From NCBI GenBank assembly GCA_035547515.1, contig DASZUS010000008.1:28257-92256 (forward strand): a stretch of 64,000 nucleotides of DNA, given 5' to 3'. Below, piece after piece: positions 37,927-51,371 of the stretch. The notes under the pieces were generated by a model that was given only the letters and a program-made list of their open reading frames with translations, had not been told where the DNA came from and did not search any database. The number at the start of each line of letters is the position of its first letter. Within the stretch, counting starts at the first letter, position 1. Made by a program: the position numbers and the translations under genes. The stretch is from Mycobacteriales bacterium. Lineage in GTDB: Bacteria > Actinomycetota > Actinomycetes > JAFAQI01.

Positions 37927-40011
37927 TCAGGTTCGTTGAACCGCCAGGAGGGCGACGTCATCGGCCCGGGTCGCGCCGGACAGCGCGGTCAAGATGTGGT
38001 CGAGCAGCACATCAGGAGTTCGTGTCGCTGCGCCGACGGCGGCGCGGATCAGCCGGCCGGTCCCTTCGTCGATGTCACGGTGGCGGTCCTCGACCAGGCC
38101 GTCGGTATAGAGCACAAGGCCGGCGCCCACCGGGAGCTCGCCCTCCCACAACACCGGTCGCTCCGCGCCGGGAACGCCGAGCGGCGCAGCGGGATCGAGG
38201 GTTGGGAACCAAGCCCGGTCCGGTTCCACGATCAGGGGCGGCAGGTGTCCGGCGGAGGCGATCGTCAGCTTGCCGTTCGTCGGGTCGAGCCGCGCGAACA
38301 GCGCCGTGGCCATCCGGTCCAGGCCGAGGTGGTCCCAGTTCGTGTGCAAGAGGTTGATCAGCTCGTCCGGGCTGTTGGCTTGCGACCGCAGCGCCCGGCA
38401 GGCGCTGCGCAGCTGCGCCATCGTTGCGGCGGCGGTGATGTCGTGGCCGGCGACGTCCCCGATGGCCAGGGCTACCTCGCCGCTGCCCGTGACCATGACG
38501 TCCCAGAAGTCACCGCCGACTTCTGCATCGGTGGTGCCGGGCAGGTAGCGCACCGCGAACTGCAAGGTCTCGACGGTTGGGAGCTCGGAAGGGAGCAGGT
38601 TCGTCTGCAAGGTGTGCGAGAGGTTGCGCTCGACGTCGTAGTGACGTTCCTTCGCGATCACCAGTGCCACCCGGCTGGCGAGCTCCTCGGCCAATGACAC
38701 GTCGTCGGGACCGAACCTGCGCCCGGAGCCCGCGGACAGCAGGGTGACGGTGCCGAGCACCGCGTCGTTGGCGATCAAGGGGATCGTCATGAAGCTGCTG
38801 CACCCGAGCTGTTTGGCGATGCGGAAGTGCTCGTCGTTTCGGGTCACGGAGCGCAGGAACTCGTCGCTCATGTCGGCTGACCACCGTGACCGCCGGACTC
38901 GCATGGCCTCGATGCTCGGATGCGTGCCGGTCGCTACCGGTGCGTACCTCGTCCGCAGCACGTCGACCAGGGCTTGGTGGGCGGGGTCGGCGTGTACGGC
39001 GGCGACGCGGCGGGGCCGGCCCGCCGCGTCGACCACGTCGATCAAGCAGATGTCGCCGAGCTGCGGCACGGCCACCGACGCCAGAGCCTGCAGCGTCTCG
39101 GTGAAGCCGCTGACGTGCGCGAGAACGTTGGAAGCGTCGAGGAGAAACCGTTGCGACCGTTGCGCTTCACGCAGCTGCACGACCAGGGCCGTGCGCTGCG
39201 CATCCGCCGCTCGGCGCTCGGTGTCGTCGTGGACGTACCAGACCCGGCCGATGATCACGTCCGCGTCGTCGGTGATCGGGGCTGCGTACCCTTCGACGAT
39301 GCGGCCGTCGTGAAGGCTGAGGGTCGACGACCGGCTCTGTGAGGCATCGCCGCCCCGCGCGCCGATCGTCTGCAGCAGCGGCGTCTGGTCGGCCAGCTGG
39401 GCTTGGCAAAGCGCCAGCACGGCCTCCGCGTTCCCCCCGACTGGAATGTCGGAGGTCTCGAGGCCCCACAGCTCGCAGAACGTGCGATTCACGGCGAGGA
39501 CGCGTCCGTCGGACGCCCACGCGAGCACGCCGTCGCGGGCGGCGTCGACTGTTGCCTGCAGGTAGCGCGACAGCAAGGCCTGCCGTTCCAGGTCCACGCG
39601 GCGCGAGACATCCCTGATCGTTGCCACCACTGCGAACTGCGGGTCATCCGGCTCTCCGACGACCGCGAGCGTCAGCTCGACGGGCAGCTCGGAGCCGTCT
39701 GCGCGGAGCGCCGCAACCTGGACCGGGCCACCGCCCACCAGCCGACCGTGTCCGGTCCGCACGAAGTTGCCGAAGCCCGCCTGATGGGCGCTGCGGAAGC
39801 GTTGCGGGACCAGCTCGACGAGCGGCAGCCCGACCTGGACCCGCCGGCCGAACAGCGCCTCGGCGGCCGGGTTTGCGCCCGCGACCATGCCGCGGCGATC
39901 CGCGACGACCACGGCGTCGGCCAGCACGCGAAGTACGGCGGACTCGTCGATCGTCGGCGGGTGCTCCGGCCAGGGCGTGGCTGCTCGGCCAGCACCCGTG
40001 TCGGCTGACAT
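37927..40011 (-). CDS. PAS-PAS-GAF-PP2C (SpoIIE family) protein phosphatase
   Basis: 694 aa. There are two PAS-like segments (VVVADRRGMVAGANPAAEALFG; VLAWASDGRVLAVNRTFCELWG). These are followed by a GAF-like region and a C-terminal PP2C/SpoIIE region (EVGGDFWDV...IGDVAGHD...ASAGHLPP...LYTDGLVE). Confidence 0.8.
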   Translation of the reverse strand: MSADTGAGRAATPWPEHPPTIDESAVLRVLADAVVVADRRGMVAGANPAAEALFGRRVQVGLPLVELVPQRFRSAHQAGFGNFVRTGHGRLVGGGPVQVAALRADGSELPVELTLAVVGEPDDPQFAVVATIRDVSRRVDLERQALLSRYLQATVDAARDGVLAWASDGRVLAVNRTFCELWGLETSDIPVGGNAEAVLALCQAQLADQTPLLQTIGARGGDASQSRSSTLSLHDGRIVEGYAAPITDDADVIIGRVWYVHDDTERRAADAQRTALVVQLREAQRSQRFLLDASNVLAHVSGFTETLQALASVAVPQLGDICLIDVVDAAGRPRRVAAVHADPAHQALVDVLRTRYAPVATGTHPSIEAMRVRRSRWSADMSDEFLRSVTRNDEHFRIAKQLGCSSFMTIPLIANDAVLGTVTLLSAGSGRRFGPDDVSLAEELASRVALVIAKERHYDVERNLSHTLQTNLLPSELPTVETLQFAVRYLPGTTDAEVGGDFWDVMVTGSGEVALAIGDVAGHDITAAATMAQLRSACRALRSQANSPDELINLLHTNWDHLGLDRMATALFARLDPTNGKLTIASAGHLPPLIVEPDRAWFPTLDPAAPLGVPGAERPVLWEGELPVGAGLVLYTDGLVEDRHRDIDEGTGRLIRAAVGAATRTPDVLLDHILTALSGATRADDVALLAVQRT

Positions 40012-40041: not shown

Positions 40042-41016
40042 GTGGCCACGGAAGTTCAGGAGGTCGCTCCGCAGGCGCACACCGTCAGTTTCTACGACGA
40101 CGACCGCCACCTCGTCGCTGATGTCGCCCGTTTCGTCGCGGACGGGCTGACCCACGGCGAGCGGGTCGTGGTCGTGGCAACCGCCGAGCACCGCGCCGCG
40201 ATCGACGACGTCCTCGTGCAGTTCGGGACAGACGCGATGCGTGCCCACATCCACGGCCGGTTCATCGCGCTGGACGCCGGTGAGCTGCTGCGCACCTTCA
40301 TGGTGGACGGCGCACCTGACCCTGCAAGGTTCGTCGCACACGTCGGTTCGGTCATCGACGCTGCGGCCGAAGATGGCTGCGGTGTTCGAGTGTTCGGCGA
40401 GATGGTGGCCCTGCTCTGGCAGGCCGGCGGCGAACCTGAGGCGATCGCGCTCGAAGCGTTGTGGAACGAGCTTGCGCAAAGCCGCCGGTTCTCGCTGCTC
40501 TGCGCATACCCCACCCAGGTCTTCAGCGAGACCGCACTGCCCGGGATCAACCGCGTCTGCGAGCTGCACTCAGAGGTCATGGCGCCGCGCAGCTACACCG
40601 CCGCAGCCTTCGACACCACACCTGCCGACCCTCCCGTTGTGGCGCGAACCTCGCAGCTGTTCGTGCCGGTGCCCTCGGCAGTCAGGGCTGCCCGGCTGTT
40701 CGCGGGCGACGTGCTGCGGAGCTGGGGCGAGGACGCCGTCCTCGGCGATGCGCGCGCCATCGTCTCCGAGCTCGCCACGAACGCGGTCGCGCACGCCTCG
40801 TCGGCATTTCAGATTCGCCTTGCCCGAGCGGACCAGGTCCTCCGCATCTCGGTCGAGGACGTCGGCCCGGCGCAACCGCAACGACGCGAGCCGTCGCCTG
40901 AGGATCTCAACGGCCGGGGAATGCTGCTCGTCGAGTCGCTCGCGCTGCGGTGGGGGTGCGAGGCCACGGCTGCCGGCAAGTCGGTGTGGGCGGAGCTCCC
41001 CTCGCGTCCCGGCTAG
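40042..41016 (+). CDS. MEDS sensory domain fused to RsbW-like HATPase (anti-sigma regulatory kinase)
   Basis: 324 aa from a GTG start. The N-terminus (HTVSFYDDDRHLVADVARFVADGL..GERVVVV...FGEMVALLW) matches the MEDS domain pattern. The C-terminus (IVSELATNAVAHA...LRISVEDVG...GRGMLLVESLALRWG) is HATPase_c of the anti-sigma kinase type. Confidence 0.7.
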   Translation: MATEVQEVAPQAHTVSFYDDDRHLVADVARFVADGLTHGERVVVVATAEHRAAIDDVLVQFGTDAMRAHIHGRFIALDAGELLRTFMVDGAPDPARFVAHVGSVIDAAAEDGCGVRVFGEMVALLWQAGGEPEAIALEALWNELAQSRRFSLLCAYPTQVFSETALPGINRVCELHSEVMAPRSYTAAAFDTTPADPPVVARTSQLFVPVPSAVRAARLFAGDVLRSWGEDAVLGDARAIVSELATNAVAHASSAFQIRLARADQVLRISVEDVGPAQPQRREPSPEDLNGRGMLLVESLALRWGCEATAAGKSVWAELPSRPG

Positions 41017-41765
41017 CCCTTGAGCAGGCCTCCGATGAGGCCACCGACCGCGCCGCCCGCTCCCGCGTTGCCTGCCTCGGCGGTCGGCAGGTAGGGCATC
41101 AAGTCCTGCGCGAGCCCCTGCAAGGTCAGCGACTGCAGCCAGACCTTGCCCGGGCCGGTGAGCTTCACCAGGAAGAACTCGCCTCCGAAGAACTTGTTCT
41201 TCAGGCCCTTGATCGTCGTGATGCCGAACTGCGTGCCGTCGGTGAACATGCCGATGTGCGCGGGGTGCACGAAGAGGTTCTGCCCGGGCTGCAGGTCGTA
41301 GGTGACGATCTCGCCCTGCAGCTGGATCCAGGCGTCGCACTGGCCGCCGACGCGCTGCAGGATGAAACCCTCGCCACCGAACAGCGCACCGCCCAACGAC
41401 TGCTGGAATGCCGCTGAGAGCTGTACGCCGTTCGTCGCCGCCAGGAAGCCGTGGCGGTGAACGATGTAGTCGTGTCCCGGGGAGACGCTCACCGGCAGGA
41501 TCTGGCCCGGGATCGTGGTCGAGAACGCGACGAGGCCGCCAGCCGCACCGGCGGTGTAGCTGCTCGTGAACAGTGTGCCGCCACCGGCCATCCGCTTGAT
41601 GGCGCCCATGAATCCGCCGCTGCCGCCGGCGTACGACGTGGAGGTCGCCATCGTCACGTCCTCGGACATCCACGACATGCGGCCGGCCTCGCCGATGACC
41701 GCCTCGCCGGCGCTGAGCACGCACTCGAGGACCGGAAGCGTGGTGCCGAGAATCTTGGTCTGCAT
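41013..41765 (-). CDS. AIM24/TIGR00266 (DUF124) family protein
   Basis: 250 aa. The pattern L..GE....E.G.M.wM...v.m.T...GG......KR...GE and later GEGF.LQ...G.G..wlq..G, with a Gly-rich tail, matches the family consensus from memory. Confidence 0.65.
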   Translation of the reverse strand: MQTKILGTTLPVLECVLSAGEAVIGEAGRMSWMSEDVTMATSTSYAGGSGGFMGAIKRMAGGGTLFTSSYTAGAAGGLVAFSTTIPGQILPVSVSPGHDYIVHRHGFLAATNGVQLSAAFQQSLGGALFGGEGFILQRVGGQCDAWIQLQGEIVTYDLQPGQNLFVHPAHIGMFTDGTQFGITTIKGLKNKFFGGEFFLVKLTGPGKVWLQSLTLQGLAQDLMPYLPTAEAGNAGAGGAVGGLIGGLLKG

Positions 41766-41828: not shown

Positions 41829-44800
41829 CTAGCCCGCGACGCCCAGGTAGGACTCGATGACGCGGTCGTTCTCGAGCACGTCGCCCGGCGCCCCCTCCGC
41901 GATGACCTGTCCGAGCTCGAGGGCGACGAGGCGGTCACACAGCGAGGTCAGCAAGGGCATGTCGTGGTCGATGACGAGCATCGTCGCGCCGGTCTCGTCG
42001 CGCACTCTGCGCAGCAACGGGCCAAGCGCTTCGGTCTCCTTCTGCGCCACGCCGGCAGTCGGCTCGTCGAGGAGTACGACGGCGGGCCGCTGAGCCATGA
42101 TGCAGGCCAGCTCGACGATGCGCCGGGTGCCCGTGGACAGCTCGCCGATCATCGTGTCTGCGTAGCGGACCAACCCGAGCTGGGCCAGCAGATCCTGCAC
42201 CCGCTCGGCGACGGCAGCCTCGGACAGGGTCGAGGCCGGCAGCCGGAGCGCCGCGGCGACGACATCCCGGGAGTCGACGTGGCGCTCGAGTGCGACGGCA
42301 ACCGTCTCCGCCACGGTGAGCCCGGGGAAGAGCCGGGCTTCCTGGAACGAGCGGCCCAGCCCGATCACTGCTCGGTCCGACGCGCCGAACGACGTCACGT
42401 CGGAGCCACCGAGAAAGACCTTGCCGCCGTCGGTCGGCAGGAAGCCGCAGATGACGTCGAACAGCGTCGTCTTGCCGGCGCCGTTGTGCCCGATGAGGCC
42501 GACGATCTCACCCTTGTGAACCGTCATGCCGATGTCGTTGAGCACCTTGACGCCGCCGAACGACTTGCCGACGTTGACGCACTCCAGCACTGCCGGCCGG
42601 GCGATCAGCTCGGCGAGCTCCCGCTGCCGCGTGGCGGCGCTCTTCTTGCGCGGGCGCTTCCCGCCGTTCGAGGCGTTCGCGCCGTTCGCGGTGGTCGCGG
42701 GCGCGGCGCCGCCGATGAAGACGGAGCGGAGCACGTCGGTCCTGGCCAGCAGGTCCTTGGTCTCACCCGAGAACCGCGCCGTACCGCGCTCGAGGAAGAC
42801 CGCGCGCCTCGCCACCTCGAGCGCCACGCTGACCGACTGCTCGACGATGACGATCGTGACGCCGCCTGCGGCGAGCTCGCGGACCACCTCGAGCAAGCGT
42901 GCGACCACCGAGGGGGCCAGCCCGAGGGAGAGCTCGTCGATGAGCATGACCCTCGGCTCGGTCTGCAGCGCCATCGCCAGCGAGAGCATCTGCTGCTGGC
43001 CGCCGGACATCGTCCCGGCGAGCTGTCGCTGGCGGTCCGCGAGCTGCGGGAAGAGCTCGACGGCCTTACGCCTGCCTTGCTCCAGCTTCGCTCGATCCCG
43101 GCGAACCAGCCATCCCGCGACCCGGAGGTTCTCCGCCACGCTCAGCGACGGGAAGATCGACTTGGCGGGGACGAGACACAGCCCGCGTGCCGCTCGTTGG
43201 GCCGGGCTCGTCGAGGTGATGTCGACGCCGTCGAACCACACCCTTCCGGGCGCCGCCGACAGCAGCCCGGCAACGGCCTTGAGCATCGTGGACTTGCCTG
43301 CTCCGTTCGTGCCGAGCAGCGCGACGATCTCCTGGTCGGCGACATCGAGGTCGACGCCGAACAGCACCTGCATCGGGCCGTAGCTGGCCTGGATGCCGTC
43401 GCAGCGGAGCAGCGCCGTCGAGGGCTCGACGGCCTGCGCTCCTGCGCGCTCGCTCGCCTCGACTGGTGGCGCGCTGACGGCGCCGTCGGCGGCCGCCGTG
43501 AGGTCGATTTCGCGGCGCCGTGCCACGAGGTCGAGCAAGCGATCCCGTACGCCGAAGAAGACGGACGCCAGTCCGGCCGGCAGGACCAGCAGGACGATCA
43601 GCAGCCCGGAGCCGGTGATCAGCAGCTGGTACTGCGGGTAGTAGTGGACGGCCGCTTGCACAGCGATCACGCCGAGCAGGGCGCCGACGATCGAGTCCGC
43701 GCCGCCGATGATCAGCATCGAGAAGACGAGGAAGCTGTCCGCCGGCGGGTAGGTCTCGAACCCGACGCTTTGCAGGATGGTCGAGTGCAGCCCGCCGGCG
43801 ATGCCGGCGATCGCTCCGGACAGGACGAAGCCGAGCAGCTTGACCCGCATGGTCGGCACAGCCATGGCGGCCGCGGCGCGCGGGTTGTCGCGCGTCGCGA
43901 GCATCACCCGGCCGGGTCGCGCGCGGCGCAGTCCCTGGACGATGACGATGGTCAGGATGAGCAGGCCGAGGCCGACGTAGTAGAGAGCGCGCTCGGAGGT
44001 GAGGTTGAACCGCTTCCACAGCACCGGGCGGGTGATCGACGACGGAAGCAACGAGTTGAAGTCGGTGGGGTTGAAGAAGTAGCTGTCGGCCGCGACCGCC
44101 AGCGCCATGGTCGTGACGGCCAGGTCGAGGCCCTGGATGCGCAGCGCCGGGAGCCCGACCAGGACCGCGAGCAGCGCGCCCGCGGCTCCGGCGGCGATCA
44201 GGCAGACGAAGAAGTCGAGGTTCCAGTGCGTCATCAGGTCGCCGACGAGGATCCCGCCGAGGCCGACGAAGGCGTACTGGCCGAAGCTGACCTGGCCCGA
44301 CCAGCCGACCAGGACCACGAGAGACACCGCGACGATCGCGAAGACCGCAGTCACGCTGAAGATCCGGATCGTGCTGGGACTGCAAGCAAGCGGTACGAAG
44401 ACCGCCAGCGCGAGCAGTGCGACCCGGCCGGCACTCTGCGCCGCCAGGACCTCGGGCAGCCGGCGCAGCGGGGCCGGGATGTCGCGGGCGCGGTCGCCGC
44501 TCGACAGCGAGGTCTCCTCAGCGCCGTCGCGCCCTTGGCCCCGGCGCGGCAGCAGCAGCGCCAGCAGGATGACCGCGAGGAACGCGACGTCGGTGAGCCC
44601 CGGCTGTGAGGTGAAGTTCCACGAGACCAGGGCGCTCAGGATGCCCAGCCCGATGCCGGCGAACATCGCGATGGGCAAGGACTCCTTGCGCGCGAGCACG
44701 GCGGCGGCGAGGGCTGGTAGCAGCAACGTCGGGCCGGCTCCGGCCGCGATCGTGACGCCTTGGTCGGGGGCGGGAAGGATGACCGCCGCCGCGGCGAGCA

Positions 44801-45503
44801 CACCGCCGACCGTCCAGACGATGGTGGCGAGCCGGCGTACCGGGACTCCGAGCAGCAGCGCCCGGTCGCGGTTGTCGGCGATCGCACGCACCGCGATGCC
44901 CGAGTCGGTCCGCAGCAGGTACCAGCCGAGCGCGACGATCGCGACGGGCACCGCGATGACCACGATGAGGTCGTTGCCGGTGAACAGCACCGGGCCGATG
45001 TTCAGCCCGTGCTTGGTGAGGGCGGTCGAGAAGCCGCCAACGAGCGACGGCCCGCCGATCCACTTCGGCAACAGCAGCTGGATGCCGCCGAGCACCTGCG
45101 CGAGCCCGAGGGTCGCGACGGTGAGGGTCAGCCGGCTGGCGTTGGCGAAGCGCCGGATGACGAGGAGCTCGGTGAGCGCGCCGACGAGCGCGCCGGTCAG
45201 CAGGCCGGCGATCACCGCGAGCGGCCACGACCAGTGCTGCCCGAGGTAGAGCAGGACCCCGACGGTGCCGCCGACGCCGCCCATCGAGCCGTACGCGAAG
45301 TTGACGATGCGATCCGACCGGTAGGTCAGGACCAGACCCAGCGCGAACAGCCCGTTGACCGATCCGAATAGCGCGCCTTGCAGGATGATGCCGAACGGCG
45401 CCTTGCCCGGCGCGGCCAGATGGGTGACCAGCAACGCCAGTACGACGCCGACTCCCGCGGACAGTGCGCGGTGGCGGTTCAACGTGTCGGAGATCGCGGT
45501 CAC
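41829..45503 (-). CDS. single-polypeptide branched-chain-amino-acid-type ABC importer: LivH-like + LivM-like permeases + LivF-like + LivG-like ATPases
   Basis: One uninterrupted 1224-aa ORF. Residues ~1-330 resemble LivH (LVLTYRSDRIVNFAYGS). Residues ~340-650 resemble LivM (VSFGQYAFVGLGG). Next is NBD1 with Walker A GTNGAGKST and signature SGGQQQML (LivF-like). Last is NBD2 with Walker A GHNGAGKTT and signature LSTGTRR (LivG-like). Confidence 0.8.
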   Translation of the reverse strand: MTAISDTLNRHRALSAGVGVVLALLVTHLAAPGKAPFGIILQGALFGSVNGLFALGLVLTYRSDRIVNFAYGSMGGVGGTVGVLLYLGQHWSWPLAVIAGLLTGALVGALTELLVIRRFANASRLTLTVATLGLAQVLGGIQLLLPKWIGGPSLVGGFSTALTKHGLNIGPVLFTGNDLIVVIAVPVAIVALGWYLLRTDSGIAVRAIADNRDRALLLGVPVRRLATIVWTVGGVLAAAAVILPAPDQGVTIAAGAGPTLLLPALAAAVLARKESLPIAMFAGIGLGILSALVSWNFTSQPGLTDVAFLAVILLALLLPRRGQGRDGAEETSLSSGDRARDIPAPLRRLPEVLAAQSAGRVALLALAVFVPLACSPSTIRIFSVTAVFAIVAVSLVVLVGWSGQVSFGQYAFVGLGGILVGDLMTHWNLDFFVCLIAAGAAGALLAVLVGLPALRIQGLDLAVTTMALAVAADSYFFNPTDFNSLLPSSITRPVLWKRFNLTSERALYYVGLGLLILTIVIVQGLRRARPGRVMLATRDNPRAAAAMAVPTMRVKLLGFVLSGAIAGIAGGLHSTILQSVGFETYPPADSFLVFSMLIIGGADSIVGALLGVIAVQAAVHYYPQYQLLITGSGLLIVLLVLPAGLASVFFGVRDRLLDLVARRREIDLTAAADGAVSAPPVEASERAGAQAVEPSTALLRCDGIQASYGPMQVLFGVDLDVADQEIVALLGTNGAGKSTMLKAVAGLLSAAPGRVWFDGVDITSTSPAQRAARGLCLVPAKSIFPSLSVAENLRVAGWLVRRDRAKLEQGRRKAVELFPQLADRQRQLAGTMSGGQQQMLSLAMALQTEPRVMLIDELSLGLAPSVVARLLEVVRELAAGGVTIVIVEQSVSVALEVARRAVFLERGTARFSGETKDLLARTDVLRSVFIGGAAPATTANGANASNGGKRPRKKSAATRQRELAELIARPAVLECVNVGKSFGGVKVLNDIGMTVHKGEIVGLIGHNGAGKTTLFDVICGFLPTDGGKVFLGGSDVTSFGASDRAVIGLGRSFQEARLFPGLTVAETVAVALERHVDSRDVVAAALRLPASTLSEAAVAERVQDLLAQLGLVRYADTMIGELSTGTRRIVELACIMAQRPAVVLLDEPTAGVAQKETEALGPLLRRVRDETGATMLVIDHDMPLLTSLCDRLVALELGQVIAEGAPGDVLENDRVIESYLGVAG

Positions 45504-45513
45504 GCGACGGGCC

Positions 45514-47160
45514 CTACTTGCCCTTGTACGGCGTGTGCGGGAAGTTGCCCTTCGGCCACGCCTGCAGGGTGTAGCGCCGGCTGGCGAAGACGTAGGCGCC
45601 CTTGCGCTGGTTGTATGCCGAGACCTTGTTCGGGTCCCAGTAGATCTCCGCGCCGTCGAGTGTCGGGGTGAAGTCGCCCGGTGGGAACCCCCACGTGCCG
45701 AACTCGCCGGTGCCGCCGCGGTAGGAGCGCATGCCCGTCTCGAAGCTCTGCGGGGTGAGGTCCGGGCCGGCCTCCTGGATGCCGAGGGCGAGCATGTACA
45801 TCTGGGCGTAGATCAGGTTGACGAAGGTCGACGGCTCCGAGCTCGGATCCGCCTGCTTGTACGCCGCGTAGCCCAGCGTCGCCTGGTAGGGAAGCGTCGG
45901 TCCCTGGTAGGTCACCCCGAAGGCATGCGCCCACTCGGACTGGTCGAACAGCTGGCCGACGATGTCCTCGTCGGTGAGCGCGACGCCGACCACTGCCCAC
46001 TCCGGGTAGTAGTCCTGCTCGGCGGCGCGCTGCGTCAGGTAGACCGGGATGATCGGGTCGCAGCCGCACACGACGGTGGTGATGTTGTTGGCCTTGAGCT
46101 TGGAGATGATCCCGTCGGCCTGGTTGGCCAGCGTCGCCAGGTTGAGCTGGTAGGGGATGTTCATCGGCGCCTTCTGGCCGGCCGAGGTGAAGATGCGGGC
46201 ACCGTTGGCAACGCACTGCTGGTACCACGGGTTGTCGGGTGCGAGGGTGGCGAACGTCCTGGTGTGACTGGCAAGGGCCGGCCCCGCGAAACTCGCCTTC
46301 TTCCCGGCGAGCTCCCGGACGCCGACCTCGGCCACCGCTTCGCTGACGCCGGTGCAGTCGGTTGCCACGCTCCACGAGTACGGCGCGCGTTGCGCGAACC
46401 ACTGCTTCGACATGTACGGCACGCCGAAGTTGACGACTTTGTCGCGCGACAGCGCGTCGGCGTACGGCTCGGTCACCGCACTCATGTCGCCGAACGCCTT
46501 GATGCTGGTGGCGACCTTCAGCGCATCGTCGCTTGCCTGCTGCTGCCCGCCGCCGAGCAGCTCGTTGGTCTGCGAGCCCTGGCCCTTGTAGAAGACGAAC
46601 TTGAGCTTGCGGCCGTAGAACTGGAAGTGGCTGTTGAAGTAGTCGGCCAGGCCCTGGATCGTGCGGTCGGTGTCGGCCTGGGTGTCGGAGAACTGGGCGC
46701 CGCCGATCGCGGCCAGGGTCTGCTGGAAGCTCGGGTCCGAGGTGATCCGGTAGGCGATCGTGATCGTCGAGCCGGTGACCCCCCGGCTGGTCGCGCCGCC
46801 ATTGTTTCCGGAGAAGCTCACGCAGGCAGGGGAGTACGGGTCTCCGGGGACCTGTGCGCCCTGGCACCCCTTCGGGGCGGAGATCGGCTTGCCGTTGGCG
46901 CTGGTCGTCGGCTGCCCCGCGCCCGGGACGCCGCCCTTCCCGGTGGGCAGGGTGCTGCTGCCCGCGGCACTCGTTCCGGGGCCCGTGGCTCCCGGCACGC
47001 CCGTCCCGGTCGCCGCGGTCGCGCCGGTCCCGGCCCCGGCTGTGGTCACGGTGACCTGCTGGGGCGCGTCGGTCGGTACGAACGCAGCCATCAGCACGAA
47101 GGCCACGAGGAGCACCGCGAGCGGTCCGTAACCGCGCAGGAAGGGACTCGGGTTGGTCAT
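45514..47160 (-). CDS. membrane-anchored ABC substrate-binding protein (type 1 PBP, LivJ-like) with Gly/Thr/Ala-rich N-terminal linker
   Basis: 548 aa. An N-terminal TM helix (LAVLLVAFVLMAAFV) is followed by a low-complexity linker (TTAGAGTGATAATGTGVPGATGPGTSAAG...). A PBP1-like body follows. It lies 10 bp upstream of the fused transporter gene. Confidence 0.65.
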   Translation of the reverse strand: MTNPSPFLRGYGPLAVLLVAFVLMAAFVPTDAPQQVTVTTAGAGTGATAATGTGVPGATGPGTSAAGSSTLPTGKGGVPGAGQPTTSANGKPISAPKGCQGAQVPGDPYSPACVSFSGNNGGATSRGVTGSTITIAYRITSDPSFQQTLAAIGGAQFSDTQADTDRTIQGLADYFNSHFQFYGRKLKFVFYKGQGSQTNELLGGGQQQASDDALKVATSIKAFGDMSAVTEPYADALSRDKVVNFGVPYMSKQWFAQRAPYSWSVATDCTGVSEAVAEVGVRELAGKKASFAGPALASHTRTFATLAPDNPWYQQCVANGARIFTSAGQKAPMNIPYQLNLATLANQADGIISKLKANNITTVVCGCDPIIPVYLTQRAAEQDYYPEWAVVGVALTDEDIVGQLFDQSEWAHAFGVTYQGPTLPYQATLGYAAYKQADPSSEPSTFVNLIYAQMYMLALGIQEAGPDLTPQSFETGMRSYRGGTGEFGTWGFPPGDFTPTLDGAEIYWDPNKVSAYNQRKGAYVFASRRYTLQAWPKGNFPHTPYKGK

Positions 47161-48617
47161 GAGTCGATTGCCAATGCTGCGAGCCTTCTCCGTCGTCGGC
47201 TTACCAGGACGTCAGCGGCGGCGACGCCGCCGAGGGTTGCGAGAGCGATCAGCCCGACCGCGAGGCCTGCGCCGCGGCTGCAGGACGGCCGGCCCGCCGC
47301 ACTCATCGTCGAGCAGCTCGAGCTGACGATCCGGGTGCCCGCGATCACCGGCGACTGGCCGCCCTGCGGCACCGTCGACGTCTGCGGCAGTGTCGGCGGC
47401 GCCCCGCCGCCGAGGCCAGGCCCGGTCGCTGGAGAGGCGCCGCCGGGGCTCGGGCTTGCCGGCGGCAGTGTCGGCGGCGTGCCGTTGCCGAACGGGTTGG
47501 CGTACGACGTGTCGCTGGTGGTGGCGGTGGCGCCGCCGAGCTCGGCGTCGACCGCGCCCACTCCGGTGAGCGCCGTCAGCAGCAGATTGAGAGAGGTGTA
47601 GACGCTGCCGACCTGGCAGATCGCGTTGGTGATCGCCGACATGACCGGGTCGGTGAGCGTGTGCAGCAGGTTCAGGATCGGCACGAACACCGCGGCGCCG
47701 ATCCGGGAGTTGTCGATCCCGATGGACAGGGGGCTGATCCCGTAGACGCCGCTGGACAGCGTCGGTCGCGGGAGGGTGATGTGGAGCCCCGTCGCGGCGA
47801 CCGCCTTGTTGACCGCCGCGAGGGTCGAGGCGAGCGCGTTCGGCAGCGTCGGCAGCTTGACGCCGGCGAGGGTCGCGGAGCCGATGCTGAACGAGCGCGA
47901 CATCGAGGGGTGCGTGCCGCTGCGTACCGAGATCTGCCAGTGCAGGCCGTCGAGTGCGATCTTGCCGCCGAGCAGGTCCAGCTTTGCGATGTCCGCGGTG
48001 GCGGTGGAGATCCGGGCCTGGCCGTTGATCAGTCGCGCGTTGGCGGAGCTGGACAGACCGGAGATGTCGAGCAGGCCGGGGATCTCGATGCGCTCGCCGT
48101 CGAAGCTGCTGGCTGCCGCTTCGTTCGGTTGCGGGGAGACTGAGACCGCCTCGCGCCCGGTTGCGACCTTGGCGGTCTTGGTGTCGGGTCCGGCAGCCGC
48201 CTTGTCGACGCTGGCGGCGCCGGTGTCGGACTCCGCGGTGAGCGCCTTGGGGAGATCTCCGGCAGATACCGGAGGCGGAAGTGAGCTGCACTGGACCGTC
48301 AGGGTCGAGCCGACCAGGCCGAGGTCGAGAGCCTGGCTGGAGGCCTGCGCCAGCGTGTCGCGGTAGTCGGCGATCGACTGCCCGACGGTCACCGTCGCGG
48401 CCAGCCCGGCGTCGCGCGGGGAGAGCATGAAGGCCTGCGAGGTCCCCGCTGCGGAGCCTGCCACGAACTCCGTCGCCGTGGCGGTGGGCATCGGCGACGG
48501 TTCGGGACTCGCCGATGTCGTGGTCGAGCTGATCGCGAAGGCCGGGAGCTGGGTCGCGACGACCGCGGTCGCGACGCCGGTATAGAGGAGCACCCGAAAG
48601 CTGCTCCTGGCGTCCAC
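47157..48617 (-). CDS. secreted surface protein with Pro-rich linker and C-terminal TM anchor (486 aa, hypothetical)
   Basis: Signal-like N-terminus (LLYTGVATAVVATQLPAFA), a Ser/Thr/Ala/Leu-rich body, then a Pro-rich linker (PPTLPPASPSPGGASPATGPG). The C-terminus is GLAVGLIALATLGGVAAADVLVSRRRRR. ATGA overlap with the SBP gene places it first in the transporter operon. Confidence 0.55.
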   Translation of the reverse strand: MDARSSFRVLLYTGVATAVVATQLPAFAISSTTTSASPEPSPMPTATATEFVAGSAAGTSQAFMLSPRDAGLAATVTVGQSIADYRDTLAQASSQALDLGLVGSTLTVQCSSLPPPVSAGDLPKALTAESDTGAASVDKAAAGPDTKTAKVATGREAVSVSPQPNEAAASSFDGERIEIPGLLDISGLSSSANARLINGQARISTATADIAKLDLLGGKIALDGLHWQISVRSGTHPSMSRSFSIGSATLAGVKLPTLPNALASTLAAVNKAVAATGLHITLPRPTLSSGVYGISPLSIGIDNSRIGAAVFVPILNLLHTLTDPVMSAITNAICQVGSVYTSLNLLLTALTGVGAVDAELGGATATTSDTSYANPFGNGTPPTLPPASPSPGGASPATGPGLGGGAPPTLPQTSTVPQGGQSPVIAGTRIVSSSCSTMSAAGRPSCSRGAGLAVGLIALATLGGVAAADVLVSRRRRRLAALAIDS

Positions 48618-48692: not shown

Positions 48693-51371
48693 GTGACCCC
48701 ACCAACACAACAAAGTAAGACTAGTTTTGTGGTGGTCGGCGGCGGTGCGGCAGGCACCCTCGTCGCGACGCGCCTGCTCGACGAGTCGGCGCGGCGCCAT
48801 CTCTCGATGACAGTCACGGTCGTCGAGCCCCGCGCGGCGCTCGGCCGCGGGATCGCGTACTCCGCGGCGGACCGCCGCCACGTCCTCAACGTGCCCGCGC
48901 TGAAGATGACCGCGTATCCGGAGGACGGCGAGCACTTCCTGCGGTGGCTCGCGCGTCACGGCCGCGAGGTCGCGGAGGCCGACTTCGTCCCGCGGGCGTG
49001 GTACGGCCAGTACCTCGACGACGTGCTCCGGGCCGCGGCGCGCCGCGCGAACCTTGCCGAGCTGCGCGTTGTGCGCGCCCGGGCGACAGGTCTCGAGCGG
49101 GTGGGCACGCGGGCTCGCGTCATGCTCGACACCGGCGAGGACCTGCCGCCGGCCGACGGTGTCGTGCTCGCGCTGGGGCACCTCGGCGTCGAGACCGGCT
49201 GGGCGCCGCCGGCCCTTCGCGAGTCGAAGCGCTTCATCGCCGACCCCTGGGCAGCCGGCGCCCTCGACGGCGTACCGGAGGACGCCGACGTGATGTTCGT
49301 CGGCTCGGGGCTGACGATGGTCGACGCGGCCCTCCAGCTCGACCGGCCGGGCCGGACGCTGCGGGTGGTCTCGCGCCACGGCCTGCTGCCGCGGCGGCAC
49401 GTGCGCGACCTGCTTCCCGCGATGGAGGCGCCGCAGTTCTCGTGCGAGGCGCCGACGCTGGCGGAGCTGCGCAGGGTGATGTCGGCGCACATCGACAAGG
49501 CGCAGCGGCGGTACGGCGACTGGCGTCCGGCGATCGACAGCATTCGCGCCCTGACCCCCAAGCTGTGGGCCGGCCTCGACCCGGCCGACCGTGCCGAGTT
49601 CGTGCGCACCGACGCTCGCGCGTGGGACGCGGTGCGGCATCGCATCCCGCCCGACAGCGCGGAGCTCATCCACCAGATGCGCGGGGCGGGCCGGCTCGTG
49701 CTCACTCCCGGCGAGGTGGCGGCGGTGGTCGAGAGCGACGCTGGCCTCGCCGTACGTCTCTCGGACGGCTCGTCGGCCATGGTCGGGGCAGTGGTCAACT
49801 GCACGGGACCCTGCGATCGGCCGGAGCGCAGCCGCGACCCGTTCGTCCAGTCGCTGCTGGCGGCGGACCTCGCGCGAAGCGGGCCGCTCGGGATCGGGTT
49901 CGACACGCGCCCGGACGGCCGCCTCATCGGGCGTGACGGCAGTGACGACTTGCCGCTGTTCACCCTCGCGGCGCTTCGCAAGGGCTCGCTGTGGGAGTCG
50001 ACGGCGATGCCCGAGATCCGGGTGCAGGCCGCCCACGTCGCGCGATGTCTCGTCGGGCCGGCCCGCCACGAGCCGGTGCGCCCGACCGACCAGTACGGGC
50101 TGGCCGTATCGACCACCGCCGAGGCGGCGGAGCTGTGGCGGCAGGCGCTGGACCGGATCCGCCGGGTGCAGGCGGGGGCGCCGGAGCTGATCGCGGCAGC
50201 CCTCGAGATCGACCCAGCCTTTGCCCTCGGGCACGCCGCTCTCGCGTTGCTGGCGCGCGAGTGCGAGGCCGACGTCGACGCGGCGGCGTCGCTGTCGTGT
50301 GCGATCGACGCGATGCGGCTGCGGGCGGACGCCCGGGAGATCAGCTTCATCCGCATGGTCGAGGCGCGGCTGGTCGAAGAGCCCGCCACCGCGGACGAGC
50401 AGCTGCTGCGGCACATCAAGCAGCATCCGATCGACTGCCTCGCGGTGAGCGCGGCGCTGCCGACGATCGCCTTCAGCGGGGTGGCGCAGCCGATCGAGCA
50501 GGCATGGGCGCTGGTCGACTCGCTCGCACCCGAGTACGGCGACGACTGGTGGTTTCGCAGTCTCGCGGCCTTCACCCGCCAGGAGCAGGAGCGCTTTGCC
50601 GAGGCCGAGGAGCTGGCCGAGCAGGCGCTCGCCTTCGAGCCGGCTGCCGGGCACGCCGTGCATGCCCGCGCACACATCACCTATGAGACCGGCGACCACC
50701 TCGCGGGTCTGGCCTGGCTGGATCGATGGATCGACGAGCACGGCGGGGACACCAACCACCGCGCGCACTTCGTGTGGCACGCGGCGTTGCACGAGATCGC
50801 GATGGGTGACTTCGACGCGGCGCTGCGGCGCTACCACGAGCAGCTCGCGCCGCCGCGGGTCACCGGGGCGCGGGCGCTGGTCGACTCGGCGTCGCTGTTG
50901 TGGCGGCTGCGGATGCTCGGCGTGTCGATCGGGTGTGCCGAGATGCTGCCGACCCTGGCAGCGGTGGACCAGTGCGTCTTCGACCGCCCGGCGACGACCT
51001 TCACCGCGCTTCATGCGGCCATCGGACTGGCCGGTGCAGGCGACCTCGCCGCTCTCGCCGCTCTGGAGTCCTACGCCGCCGAGCATCCCAACCGCTCGTT
51101 CGCGGTAGCCGTCGTACCGCTGTGCCGCGGGCTCGCGGCGGTGGCCGATAGCCGGCCGGCCGACGCGGTCGGCCCGCTCACCGCCCTGCGCACCATGGGG
51201 CTGCGCCGCTTCGGGGGGAGCGCGGCCCAGCAGGAGGTCGTGGAGGAGACGCTGCTGCACGCACTCGTCGCATCGGGCCGTCGGGCTGAGGCCGCGACCT
51301 TGCTGGACGAGCGGCACCAGCGACGGCGGTCCCCGGGCGACCAGCGCCGCCTGGAGGCTCTCCTCAGCTGA
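48693..51371 (+). CDS. FAD/NAD(P)-binding domain protein fused to a TPR (TTC38-like) domain
   Basis: 892 aa from a GTG start. The N-terminal Rossmann motif is FVVVGGGAAGTLVATRLL, with a second dinucleotide motif at MFVGSGLTMVDAAL. The C-terminal ~400 aa are helical repeats (HFVWHAALHEIAMGDFDAALRRY), resembling TTC38-type TPR proteins. The longer antisense ORF is an Arg-rich artefact. Confidence 0.6.
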   Translation: MTPPTQQSKTSFVVVGGGAAGTLVATRLLDESARRHLSMTVTVVEPRAALGRGIAYSAADRRHVLNVPALKMTAYPEDGEHFLRWLARHGREVAEADFVPRAWYGQYLDDVLRAAARRANLAELRVVRARATGLERVGTRARVMLDTGEDLPPADGVVLALGHLGVETGWAPPALRESKRFIADPWAAGALDGVPEDADVMFVGSGLTMVDAALQLDRPGRTLRVVSRHGLLPRRHVRDLLPAMEAPQFSCEAPTLAELRRVMSAHIDKAQRRYGDWRPAIDSIRALTPKLWAGLDPADRAEFVRTDARAWDAVRHRIPPDSAELIHQMRGAGRLVLTPGEVAAVVESDAGLAVRLSDGSSAMVGAVVNCTGPCDRPERSRDPFVQSLLAADLARSGPLGIGFDTRPDGRLIGRDGSDDLPLFTLAALRKGSLWESTAMPEIRVQAAHVARCLVGPARHEPVRPTDQYGLAVSTTAEAAELWRQALDRIRRVQAGAPELIAAALEIDPAFALGHAALALLARECEADVDAAASLSCAIDAMRLRADAREISFIRMVEARLVEEPATADEQLLRHIKQHPIDCLAVSAALPTIAFSGVAQPIEQAWALVDSLAPEYGDDWWFRSLAAFTRQEQERFAEAEELAEQALAFEPAAGHAVHARAHITYETGDHLAGLAWLDRWIDEHGGDTNHRAHFVWHAALHEIAMGDFDAALRRYHEQLAPPRVTGARALVDSASLLWRLRMLGVSIGCAEMLPTLAAVDQCVFDRPATTFTALHAAIGLAGAGDLAALAALESYAAEHPNRSFAVAVVPLCRGLAAVADSRPADAVGPLTALRTMGLRRFGGSAAQQEVVEETLLHALVASGRRAEAATLLDERHQRRRSPGDQRRLEALLS

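Follow-up and report, generated by a model that had tools for sequence, protein, structure and literature searches.

A three-gene cassette with a single-chain importer core

The window analysed here is a 64,000-nt stretch of contig C8 (GenBank DASZUS010000008.1, positions 28,257 to 92,256) with a G+C content of about 70%. It belongs to a 3.09-Mb metagenome-assembled genome (MAG) of a Mycobacteriales bacterium, which consists of 98 contigs and is 85.5% complete. Three closely spaced minus-strand genes form the cassette that is our subject. The first (47157-48617) encodes P0003, a 486-aa type-I membrane protein of an unannotated family, defined by its open reading frame (ORF), its translation and its homologs; the second (45514-47160) encodes P0002, a 548-aa substrate-binding protein (SBP) recognised through family matches; and the third (41829-45503) encodes P0001, a 1224-aa single-chain core of an ATP-binding cassette (ABC) importer recognised by Pfam and NCBIfam. 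The TGA stop of gene 1 overlaps the ATG start of gene 2 in an ATGA at 47157-47160, the coupling that had been read in the initial annotation, which was made from the letters of the window without database searches. P0001 begins 10 nt past the P0002 stop, and simple scans found neither a promoter nor a convincing terminator within the cassette.

The P0001 frame opens with GTG and runs uninterrupted for 1224 codons. Pfam recognised in it two BPD_transp_2 permease domains, two ABC_tran domains and a LivG-type C-terminal BCA_ABC_TP_C domain at residues 1199-1223. The permease match (PF02653, E 3.1e-55) falls into two stretches, and the two transmembrane domains (TMD1 and TMD2) are also recovered separately in relatives. 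NCBIfam placed a LivF/UrtE-like ATPase at residues 697-932 and a LivG/UrtD-like ATPase at 972-1221. From the Pfam permease domains and the NCBIfam placement of the ATPases, the modules follow the order LivH-LivM-LivF-LivG (hereafter H-M-F-G), in agreement with the initial annotation, whose estimates for the three junctions (about 44500, 43500 and 42650) all fall within the intervals that we delimited.

Reading from the N-terminus on the minus strand, hydropathy indicates an extension with an extra hydrophobic helix at residues 12-33 (45399-45503), poorly conserved at a mean of 0.44, ahead of the LivH-like TMD1 (residues 36-320; 44544-45398), which was placed by Pfam and hydropathy. An Arg-rich junction 1 (residues 321-352; 44448-44543), 31-34 aa long in 115 homologs, leads to the LivM-like TMD2 (residues 353-660; 43524-44447), likewise placed by Pfam, with its best stretch at 379-620, and by hydropathy. 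Altogether, hydropathy gives about 18-20 membrane segments in residues 1-655, the extra helix 12-33 included. Junction 2 (residues 661-696; 43416-43523) is a variable tether of 30-140 aa in homologs, and is followed by the LivF/UrtE-like nucleotide-binding domain NBD1 (residues 697-932; 42708-43415), placed by NCBIfam and alignment. A second variable tether, junction 3 (residues 933-971; 42591-42707; 19-100 aa in homologs), precedes the LivG/UrtD-like NBD2 (residues 972-1224; 41832-42590), on which Pfam, NCBIfam and the alignment agree. The junctions themselves were delimited by alignment.

Both ATPase modules bear their diagnostic motifs. NBD1 has the Walker A sequence GTNGAGKS, the signature SGGQ and the Walker B sequence LIDEL, with Q replacing the H-loop His; NBD2 has Walker A GHNGAGKT, the Q-loop FQE, Walker B LLDEP, the H-loop HD and the BCA_ABC_TP_C C-terminus. 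In an alignment of 115 full-length relatives, both Walker A and both Walker B motifs are conserved, including the catalytic Glu, as are the Q-loop and H-loop of the LivG-like domain, whose signature is an LSTGT variant across the family. Junction 1 is conserved in length and sequence in this alignment, and the length-variable junctions 2 and 3 are as expected of flexible tethers.

Scores against the curated NCBIfam models fell below the cutoffs for LivG (275.9 against 362), LivF (242.5 against 441) and UrtD (292.1 against 304.1). P0001 nominally passed the UrtE cutoff (295.4 against 285.8), a pass that we regard as invalid because this whole-protein score adds up two ATPase domains. Sequence searches of the PDB returned relatives of the ATPase domains only, and none at E<=1 for the permease half. 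Judged by its sequence, P0001 belongs to the HAAT family, and its substrate is not readable from the LivG, LivF, UrtD and UrtE models.

The fused architecture is typical of the clade

Binding-protein-dependent ABC importers are, in textbook form, multi-subunit transporters. The initial annotation had called four-module fusions rare, which is fair for such textbook importers; in the lineage of P0001, however, fusion is the norm. More than 4000 database proteins matched P0001, and among the best 120, which we examined, 115 are 1190-1400 aa long, mostly with 97-100% coverage and 48-86% identity. These best 120 were drawn from independent NCBI, JGI, ENA and Logan assemblies and carry the labels Mycobacteriales, Frankiaceae, Acidimicrobiales and Dormibacteraeota MAGs. 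Many independent assemblies also contain orthologs at 74-86% identity that equal P0001 in length and align over all of it. The source genome itself encodes a second fused transporter, of 1266 aa, on contig C25.

We also surveyed 401 genomes sampled evenly from the phylum. Full stop-free four-module frames occur in at least about 13 of them, a count that is a lower bound, with two candidates scored per genome; other genomes in the sample carry TMD-TMD or NBD-NBD halves. The H-M-F-G order is identical in fused and split loci, and the single chain is therefore best seen as one fusion state of a conserved gene string and not as an error. As far as sequences can tell, the fusion is real and clade-typical, not unique to the source genome. 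A 2014 review describes prokaryotic ABC transporter fusions of two, occasionally three, subunits (PMC3971661), and we came across no account of a fully fused Liv-type importer in our literature searches. The fused importer is thus a clade-typical architecture, visible in databases and undescribed.

In L026 and L027, both from a near-complete 3-contig genome (G174:C1), the transporter genes lie in many short frame-shifted pieces, which look like long-read assembly indel errors rather than real pseudogenes. In a related cassette at L030:5320-8373 (G044:C5), a 1017-aa protein carries an N-terminal MFS_1 domain fused to LivF-like and LivG-like ATPases. Its gene overlaps by 4 bp the TMD-TMD gene before it, which encodes 722 aa, and the same insert is present in L027. 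An MFS domain and ABC ATPases in one protein is an odd combination.

The binding protein is tethered by a conserved transmembrane helix

P0002 itself matched no Pfam or NCBIfam model, and a PDB sequence search with its family profile gave noise only. The substrate-binding identity given to the second gene at the outset nevertheless stood, on the strength of the family and the predicted fold. At least 1349 matches make up the family, and 24 of 42 sampled members match Peripla_BP_6 (PF13458). The AlphaFold2 (AF2) model of P0002 has a predicted local distance difference test score (pLDDT) of 79.4, rising above 85 over most of residues 130-540. Foldseek aligned this model with the PDB entries 4evs, 4kv7, 3eaf and 3ipc and with LivJ and UrtA at E values of 1e-15 to 1e-12, with a Foldseek probability of 1.0 and a target TM-score of about 0.7. 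Together, the Peripla_BP_6 matches of the family and the modelled fold indicate that P0002 is a genuine type-I LivJ-fold binding protein.

The two-lobe LivJ-type fold (type I, cluster B) assigned by Foldseek occupies residues 99-545 (45526-46866) and bears a C99/C113 pair and a VCGCDP motif. It is preceded by an N-terminal transmembrane (TM) anchor at residues 6-34 (47059-47145), LRGYGPLAVLLVAFVLMAAFVP, recognised by conservation and hydropathy, in which G10, Y11, G12, P13, L14, F21, L23, M24, A25, V28 and P29 are near-invariant. Between the two lies a Gly/Thr/Ala/Pro stalk (residues 35-98; 46867-47058) evident from the sequence; pLDDT is below 50 over residues 27-98, and the segment is predicted to be disordered. 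The first Cys stands at residue 99 or later, so P0002 has no lipobox, and the description of it as anchored through a Gly/Thr linker rather than lipidated proved accurate. A separate TM helix is a recognised mode of anchoring binding proteins (PMC3971661).

The binding protein that accompanies the fused paralog on contig C25 has an RRYAP motif, a TM helix and a stalk of about 70 aa, and no anchored partner. The tether is therefore a general feature of this transporter class. We had considered the conserved TM motif of P0002 as specific to pairing with P0003, and rejected the idea because this partnerless paralog has a similar RxYxP/TM/stalk layout.

Two loci show the same N-terminal segment on its own. 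A conserved 68-aa ORF lies between the binding-protein and permease genes at L003:12000-12206 and L004:11979-12185, and amounts to a stand-alone binding-protein N-terminal TM motif (GGFGPLAVGVVLFVLMVLLAPT) with the beginning of a stalk rich in Thr. The ORF may encode a small subunit, or it may be what is left of a second binding-protein gene.

P0003 represents an unannotated family of anchored proteins

The features ascribed to the 486-aa product of the first gene were all recovered. Sequence and alignment place a signal peptide at residues 1-28, ending in LPAFA and followed by ISS (48534-48617); the GTG start at 48617 is supported because an N-terminal MDAxGKxR motif is conserved in orthologs. 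The AF2 model shows a beta-rich ectodomain at residues ~49-370 (47508-48473), in which C110 and C334 are near-invariant. A Pro/Gly-rich stalk of 58 aa (residues 377-434; 47316-47489), with low pLDDT and no secondary structure, connects it to the anchor module (47184-47315), which alignment and hydropathy resolve into C435-x10-C446, a TM helix at 449-474 and an RRRRR tail. Within this module C435, C446, G449, D469 and R474-476 are near-invariant, and the spacing from C446 to R474 is 27 aa in all 22 loci in which it was measured.

The family is sizeable. Beside 64 P0003 homologs, a profile search of 1.84 billion representative proteins yielded 756 clusters (50% identity) at E<=1e-3, 425 of them at E<=1e-30. 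Among the 150 matches listed, most are 440-510 aa long and align end-to-end, and about 12 are shorter fragments. No Pfam family was matched by P0003 or by 36 relatives (37 members). The NCBIfam model NF040603 (choice-of-anchor P, choice_anch_P) matched 3 of 37 sampled relatives, all distant, over the central strands (model positions ~16-132 of 185); two of these scored above the 27-bit cutoff (P0185, 34.1; P0177, 27.2), and P0003 itself gave no match at E<=1. P0003 has the signal peptide and C-terminal anchor that the choice-of-anchor P class requires, and shares with that class the plan of a secreted beta-rich domain followed by a C-terminal anchor. The P0003 family departs from it in having further ectodomain elements on both the N- and the C-terminal side, an anchor of its own (Cys-x10-Cys/TM/Arg) and a fixed transporter context.

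The AF2 model of P0003 exceeds a pLDDT of 90 over residues ~50-310, and Foldseek found no fold relative at E<=1e-3 in the PDB or BFVD. The initial annotation had called the protein uncharacterised, and neither Pfam nor the fold search supplied a match. A resemblance to outer-membrane beta-barrels was discarded; its TM-scores were low (<0.2), and we took it as generic beta-meander similarity.

In the family alignment, Gly, Pro, Trp and Phe account for the invariant positions. Only a few polar positions (Q91, S130, R202 and N270) come close to invariance, and no His, Asp, Glu, Ser or Lys, nor any Tyr, is invariant in the ectodomain. We rejected an enzymatic role for P0003 on the lack of conserved catalytic-type residues; because the family also has no Pfam match or fold relative, a processing enzyme is unlikely. 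P0003 is the more novel element of the cassette than the fused importer.

The strict Cys-x10-Cys/TM/RRRR tail occurs once in the source genome, in P0003, and its candidacy as a general sorting signal there was accordingly dropped. The same genome encodes C-terminal LAFTG + TM + RRRR tails, which are sortase-type signals, on contigs C40 (~2766, minus strand) and C75 (~21617, plus strand). Given these LAFTG-type sortase substrates, the organism would have wall-anchored proteins besides the TM-anchored P0003.

P0003 follows the binding-protein and transporter clade

The P0003 family was found in 16 of 37 genomes of the same order, including all 11 of its own genus, often as two or three paralogs. 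Outside the source genome the order contributed 26 matches. In 25 of these the next gene downstream, on the same strand, belongs to the P0002 family, and the one remaining match is at the end of a contig. Seen from the other side, every binding-protein match with at least 44% identity has a P0003-type partner. All 9 tested loci with an anchor gene have the order anchor-SBP-H-M-F-G, among them fused, 2+2 and other variants. Distant members (~26-34% identity; Acidimicrobiales MAGs and long ENA contigs) retain this order as well, and 4-bp start/stop overlaps recur among the distant loci, with the transporter fused, split 2+2 or otherwise varied. The pairing of the 486-aa gene with the transporter, to which the initial annotation had attached a functional meaning, is thus conserved in related genomes and in loci sampled at the level of the phylum.

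P0003-type proteins also stand beside split (2+2) transporters, and the fused C25 transporter has none. The accessory gene is therefore tied to the binding-protein and transporter clade and not to the fusion state. Plus-strand ORFs upstream of the C25 paralog were considered as a divergent anchor gene and rejected as Arg-rich antisense frames of a minus-strand gene.

We measured both stalks in 22 loci, from F376 to C435 in P0003 and from P29 to C99 in P0002. Their lengths, 37-87 aa and 47-108 aa respectively, co-vary (Spearman 0.73, p=1e-4), and the correlation stood at rho 0.81 (n=12) when the own genus was collapsed to one point. Such covariation agrees with a picture in which the two heads operate at corresponding distances from the membrane. 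Within the genus, the P0003-family ectodomain retains about 50% identity, compared with about 77% for the binding protein.

One entry of the representative protein library, P0351 (983 aa), is an in-frame fusion of a P0003-family and a P0002-family protein that keeps both TM helices and the Arg tail. From its sequence, the two helices would fold into a hairpin that leaves the ectodomains of both parts outside, an arrangement that is topologically consistent. P0351 is either a natural 'Rosetta stone' fusion or the product of a one-base error at the ATGA overlap.

A variant arrangement was noted at L028 (G404:C1:284000-299500). The anchor gene there matches weakly (tblastn E 7e-11), over query residues 200-381 only; after it come a binding-protein gene, TMD-TMD and NBD-NBD genes, and then two more P0002-family genes in tandem.

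Comparison with known uptake systems

The cassette resembles LivJ/K-LivHMGF and UrtABCDE (HAAT, TC 3.A.1.4) in its two BPD_transp_2 domains, its LivF-like and LivG-like ATPases, the BCA_ABC_TP_C tail on the latter, and a LivJ-fold binding protein encoded alongside. It differs from them in that P0001 has all four core modules in one chain, in the order H-M-F-G, that a conserved TM helix with a long stalk holds P0002, which is neither free nor lipidated, and that the operon includes an extra anchored surface protein; P0002 and the ATPases of P0001 also fall below the curated LivG, LivF and UrtD cutoffs. OpuA, GlnPQ and the TM-anchored binding proteins of archaea and Gram-positives likewise keep the binding protein at the membrane by the permease. 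The P0002 tether is distinguished from theirs as a sequence-conserved helix with a stalk of about 70 aa, and by its pairing with a second tethered protein whose stalk length co-varies.

Surface proteins act ahead of the binding protein of an ABC importer in the Isd and Shp-HtsABC systems of Firmicutes. The nearest functional precedent is in Corynebacterium, where HtaA and ChtA are C-terminal-helix-anchored hemin receptors that feed the HmuTUV ABC importer (PMC12494546). Our cassette is alike in that an ABC importer and a surface protein with a C-terminal anchor are encoded together, for an actinobacterial envelope. The transporter of the cassette, however, is of a different family. P0003 lacks the CR domains that those receptors use, as well as NEAT domains, and none of its Tyr or His residues is invariant and so suited to hold haem; ligand transfer could here be proposed by analogy only.

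Interpretation and alternatives

We consider it reasonably probable that the locus is a three-gene uptake cassette of the HAAT type (LivHMGF/UrtBCDE) in which P0003 serves as a dedicated, non-enzymatic accessory subunit. An accessory role for P0003 is argued by its synteny, its translational coupling, its conserved membrane module and the covariation of the stalks. Built on the observed domain identities, topology elements, fusion state, conservation and synteny, this account would have the three proteins physically associated and solute moving inward, and would allow for ligand binding by P0003. The P0001 chain may have arisen through loss of stops between four neighbouring genes that kept the order H-M-F-G. 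P0002, held by its conserved N-terminal helix and reaching outward on a flexible stalk of about 65-70 aa, would bind a small solute and then engage the single-chain permease, with import driven by two ATP sites whose Walker A and Walker B motifs are intact, as membership of the family suggests for each of these steps. P0003, whose beta-rich surface domain stands on a Pro-rich stalk of about 60 aa and whose Cys-x10-Cys/TM/Arg module holds it in the membrane, would be made in step with P0002 through the ATGA overlap and most likely works beside it at the same height above the membrane. There it may bind or present substrate, or position the tethered P0002 within the wall. The capture or processing step upstream of uptake suggested in the initial annotation does not survive in its enzymatic form, for want of an invariant catalytic residue; capture or relay is an analogy only.

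Several observations weigh against this reading. The second fused transporter of the source genome, on C25, has no anchored protein in its locus, and all binding-protein paralogs below 40% identity are without a P0003-type partner. The overall confidence of the P0003 model is moderate (pLDDT 73.7). The fold matches of P0002 span LivJ-type/amino-acid, aromatic-acid, urea and fatty-acid binders without discrimination, and flanking genes vary between loci and give no substrate clue. The stalk-length correlation was computed without correction for shared ancestry, and P0351 is a single case that may reflect a one-base sequencing error at the 4-bp overlap.

The alternative that we weigh most seriously, doubtful as it is, makes P0003 an assembly or stability factor without substrate contact. 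Its TM/Arg module would pack on the P0002 helix or on the extra N-terminal helix of the permease and help to insert, orient or retain P0002, with the ectodomain a mere wall spacer. This would account for the membrane module, with its fixed 27-aa spacing, being the most conserved part of the family while the ectodomain evolves much faster than the binding protein (~50% against ~77% identity), and the TM hairpin of P0351 points the same way. Related tethered binding proteins with the same RxYxP/TM/stalk layout nevertheless manage without such a partner, and a spacer would not need a folded ectodomain of about 320 aa that has been conserved across hundreds of clusters. We find it improbable that P0003 instead has nothing in common with the transporter beyond its promoter and is a surface protein of the choice-of-anchor type, either an adhesin or an envelope protein. 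The sole family link of P0003, a marginal one, is indeed to choice-of-anchor P, surface proteins of unknown role, and its fast divergence is that of exposed proteins; yet every assessable locus keeps the synteny strictly despite deep divergence, the 4-bp start/stop overlap joins the two genes, and no family member was found away from a binding-protein gene among the assessable loci.

It is very improbable that the cassette is a sensor or signalling device in which tethered P0002 and P0003 report an external cue through the ABC core. Such a device might explain why no catabolic genes are conserved beside the cassette, and PAS-GAF-SpoIIE and MEDS/HATPase regulatory genes do lie nearby in the window. 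Both ATPase sites, however, retain Walker A and B and the catalytic Glu, the permease domains are conserved and transporter-like, and the neighbouring regulators are not conserved in other loci. Scarcely credible is the suspicion that the 1224-aa frame is an assembly or sequencing artefact hiding separate genes. A fragmented, incomplete MAG (98 contigs, 85.5% complete) and the split versions of the same transporter in other lineages might invite it, but it is opposed by the equally long, fully covered orthologs from many independent assemblies (74-86% identity), by the 115 full-length proteins among the 120 best matches, by the conserved length and sequence of junction 1 and by the fused paralog in the same genome.

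Extending the accessory-subunit account, we tentatively entertain a wider possibility. The P0003 family might be a stoichiometric subunit of an unrecognised class of envelope-reaching ABC importers in uncultured Actinomycetota. On co-evolving stalks, the two proteins would operate as a pair inside the wall; a beta-rich partner of new fold would capture a scarce or poorly soluble substrate and hand it to the LivJ-fold receptor, which would pass it to the single-chain permease/ATPase; the class would include variants such as the MFS-ATPase fusion.

A natural single-chain importer, if its modules have the fixed 1:1:1:1 stoichiometry of one polypeptide, would lend itself well to studies of structure and mechanism. 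P0003 represents a sizeable unannotated family (the 756 clusters above) with no Pfam model or known fold relative and a tie to one transporter clade. Should it be a subunit, current annotation overlooks an additional extracellular component of the HAAT importers in monoderm Actinomycetota. The organisms are known from metagenomes only, and the system may bear on uptake from soil or water.

Genes flanking the cassette

The genes around the cassette were considered as pointers to its substrate and set aside, since neighbours differ between loci. Downstream, an AIM24-family gene (41013-41765, minus strand) starts 63 nt beyond P0001 with a GAGGGGG ribosome-binding site and no intervening terminator, and may be co-transcribed with the transporter at the window locus. 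No AIM24 gene was called in three annotated distant loci (L001, L003 and L004). Upstream, a divergent gene for an 892-aa protein (48693-51371, plus strand) starts 75 nt from the cassette; its product carries a FAD/NAD(P)-binding domain (NAD_binding_9) at the N-terminus, and Pfam matched nothing in the long C-terminal part. Further downstream of the cassette, a PAS-PAS-GAF-SpoIIE phosphatase gene (37927-40011, minus strand) adjoins a gene with MEDS and HATPase_c_2 domains (40042-41016, plus strand). These regulators, which are not kept beside the cassette in other loci, look like a regulatory pair of the partner-switching type.

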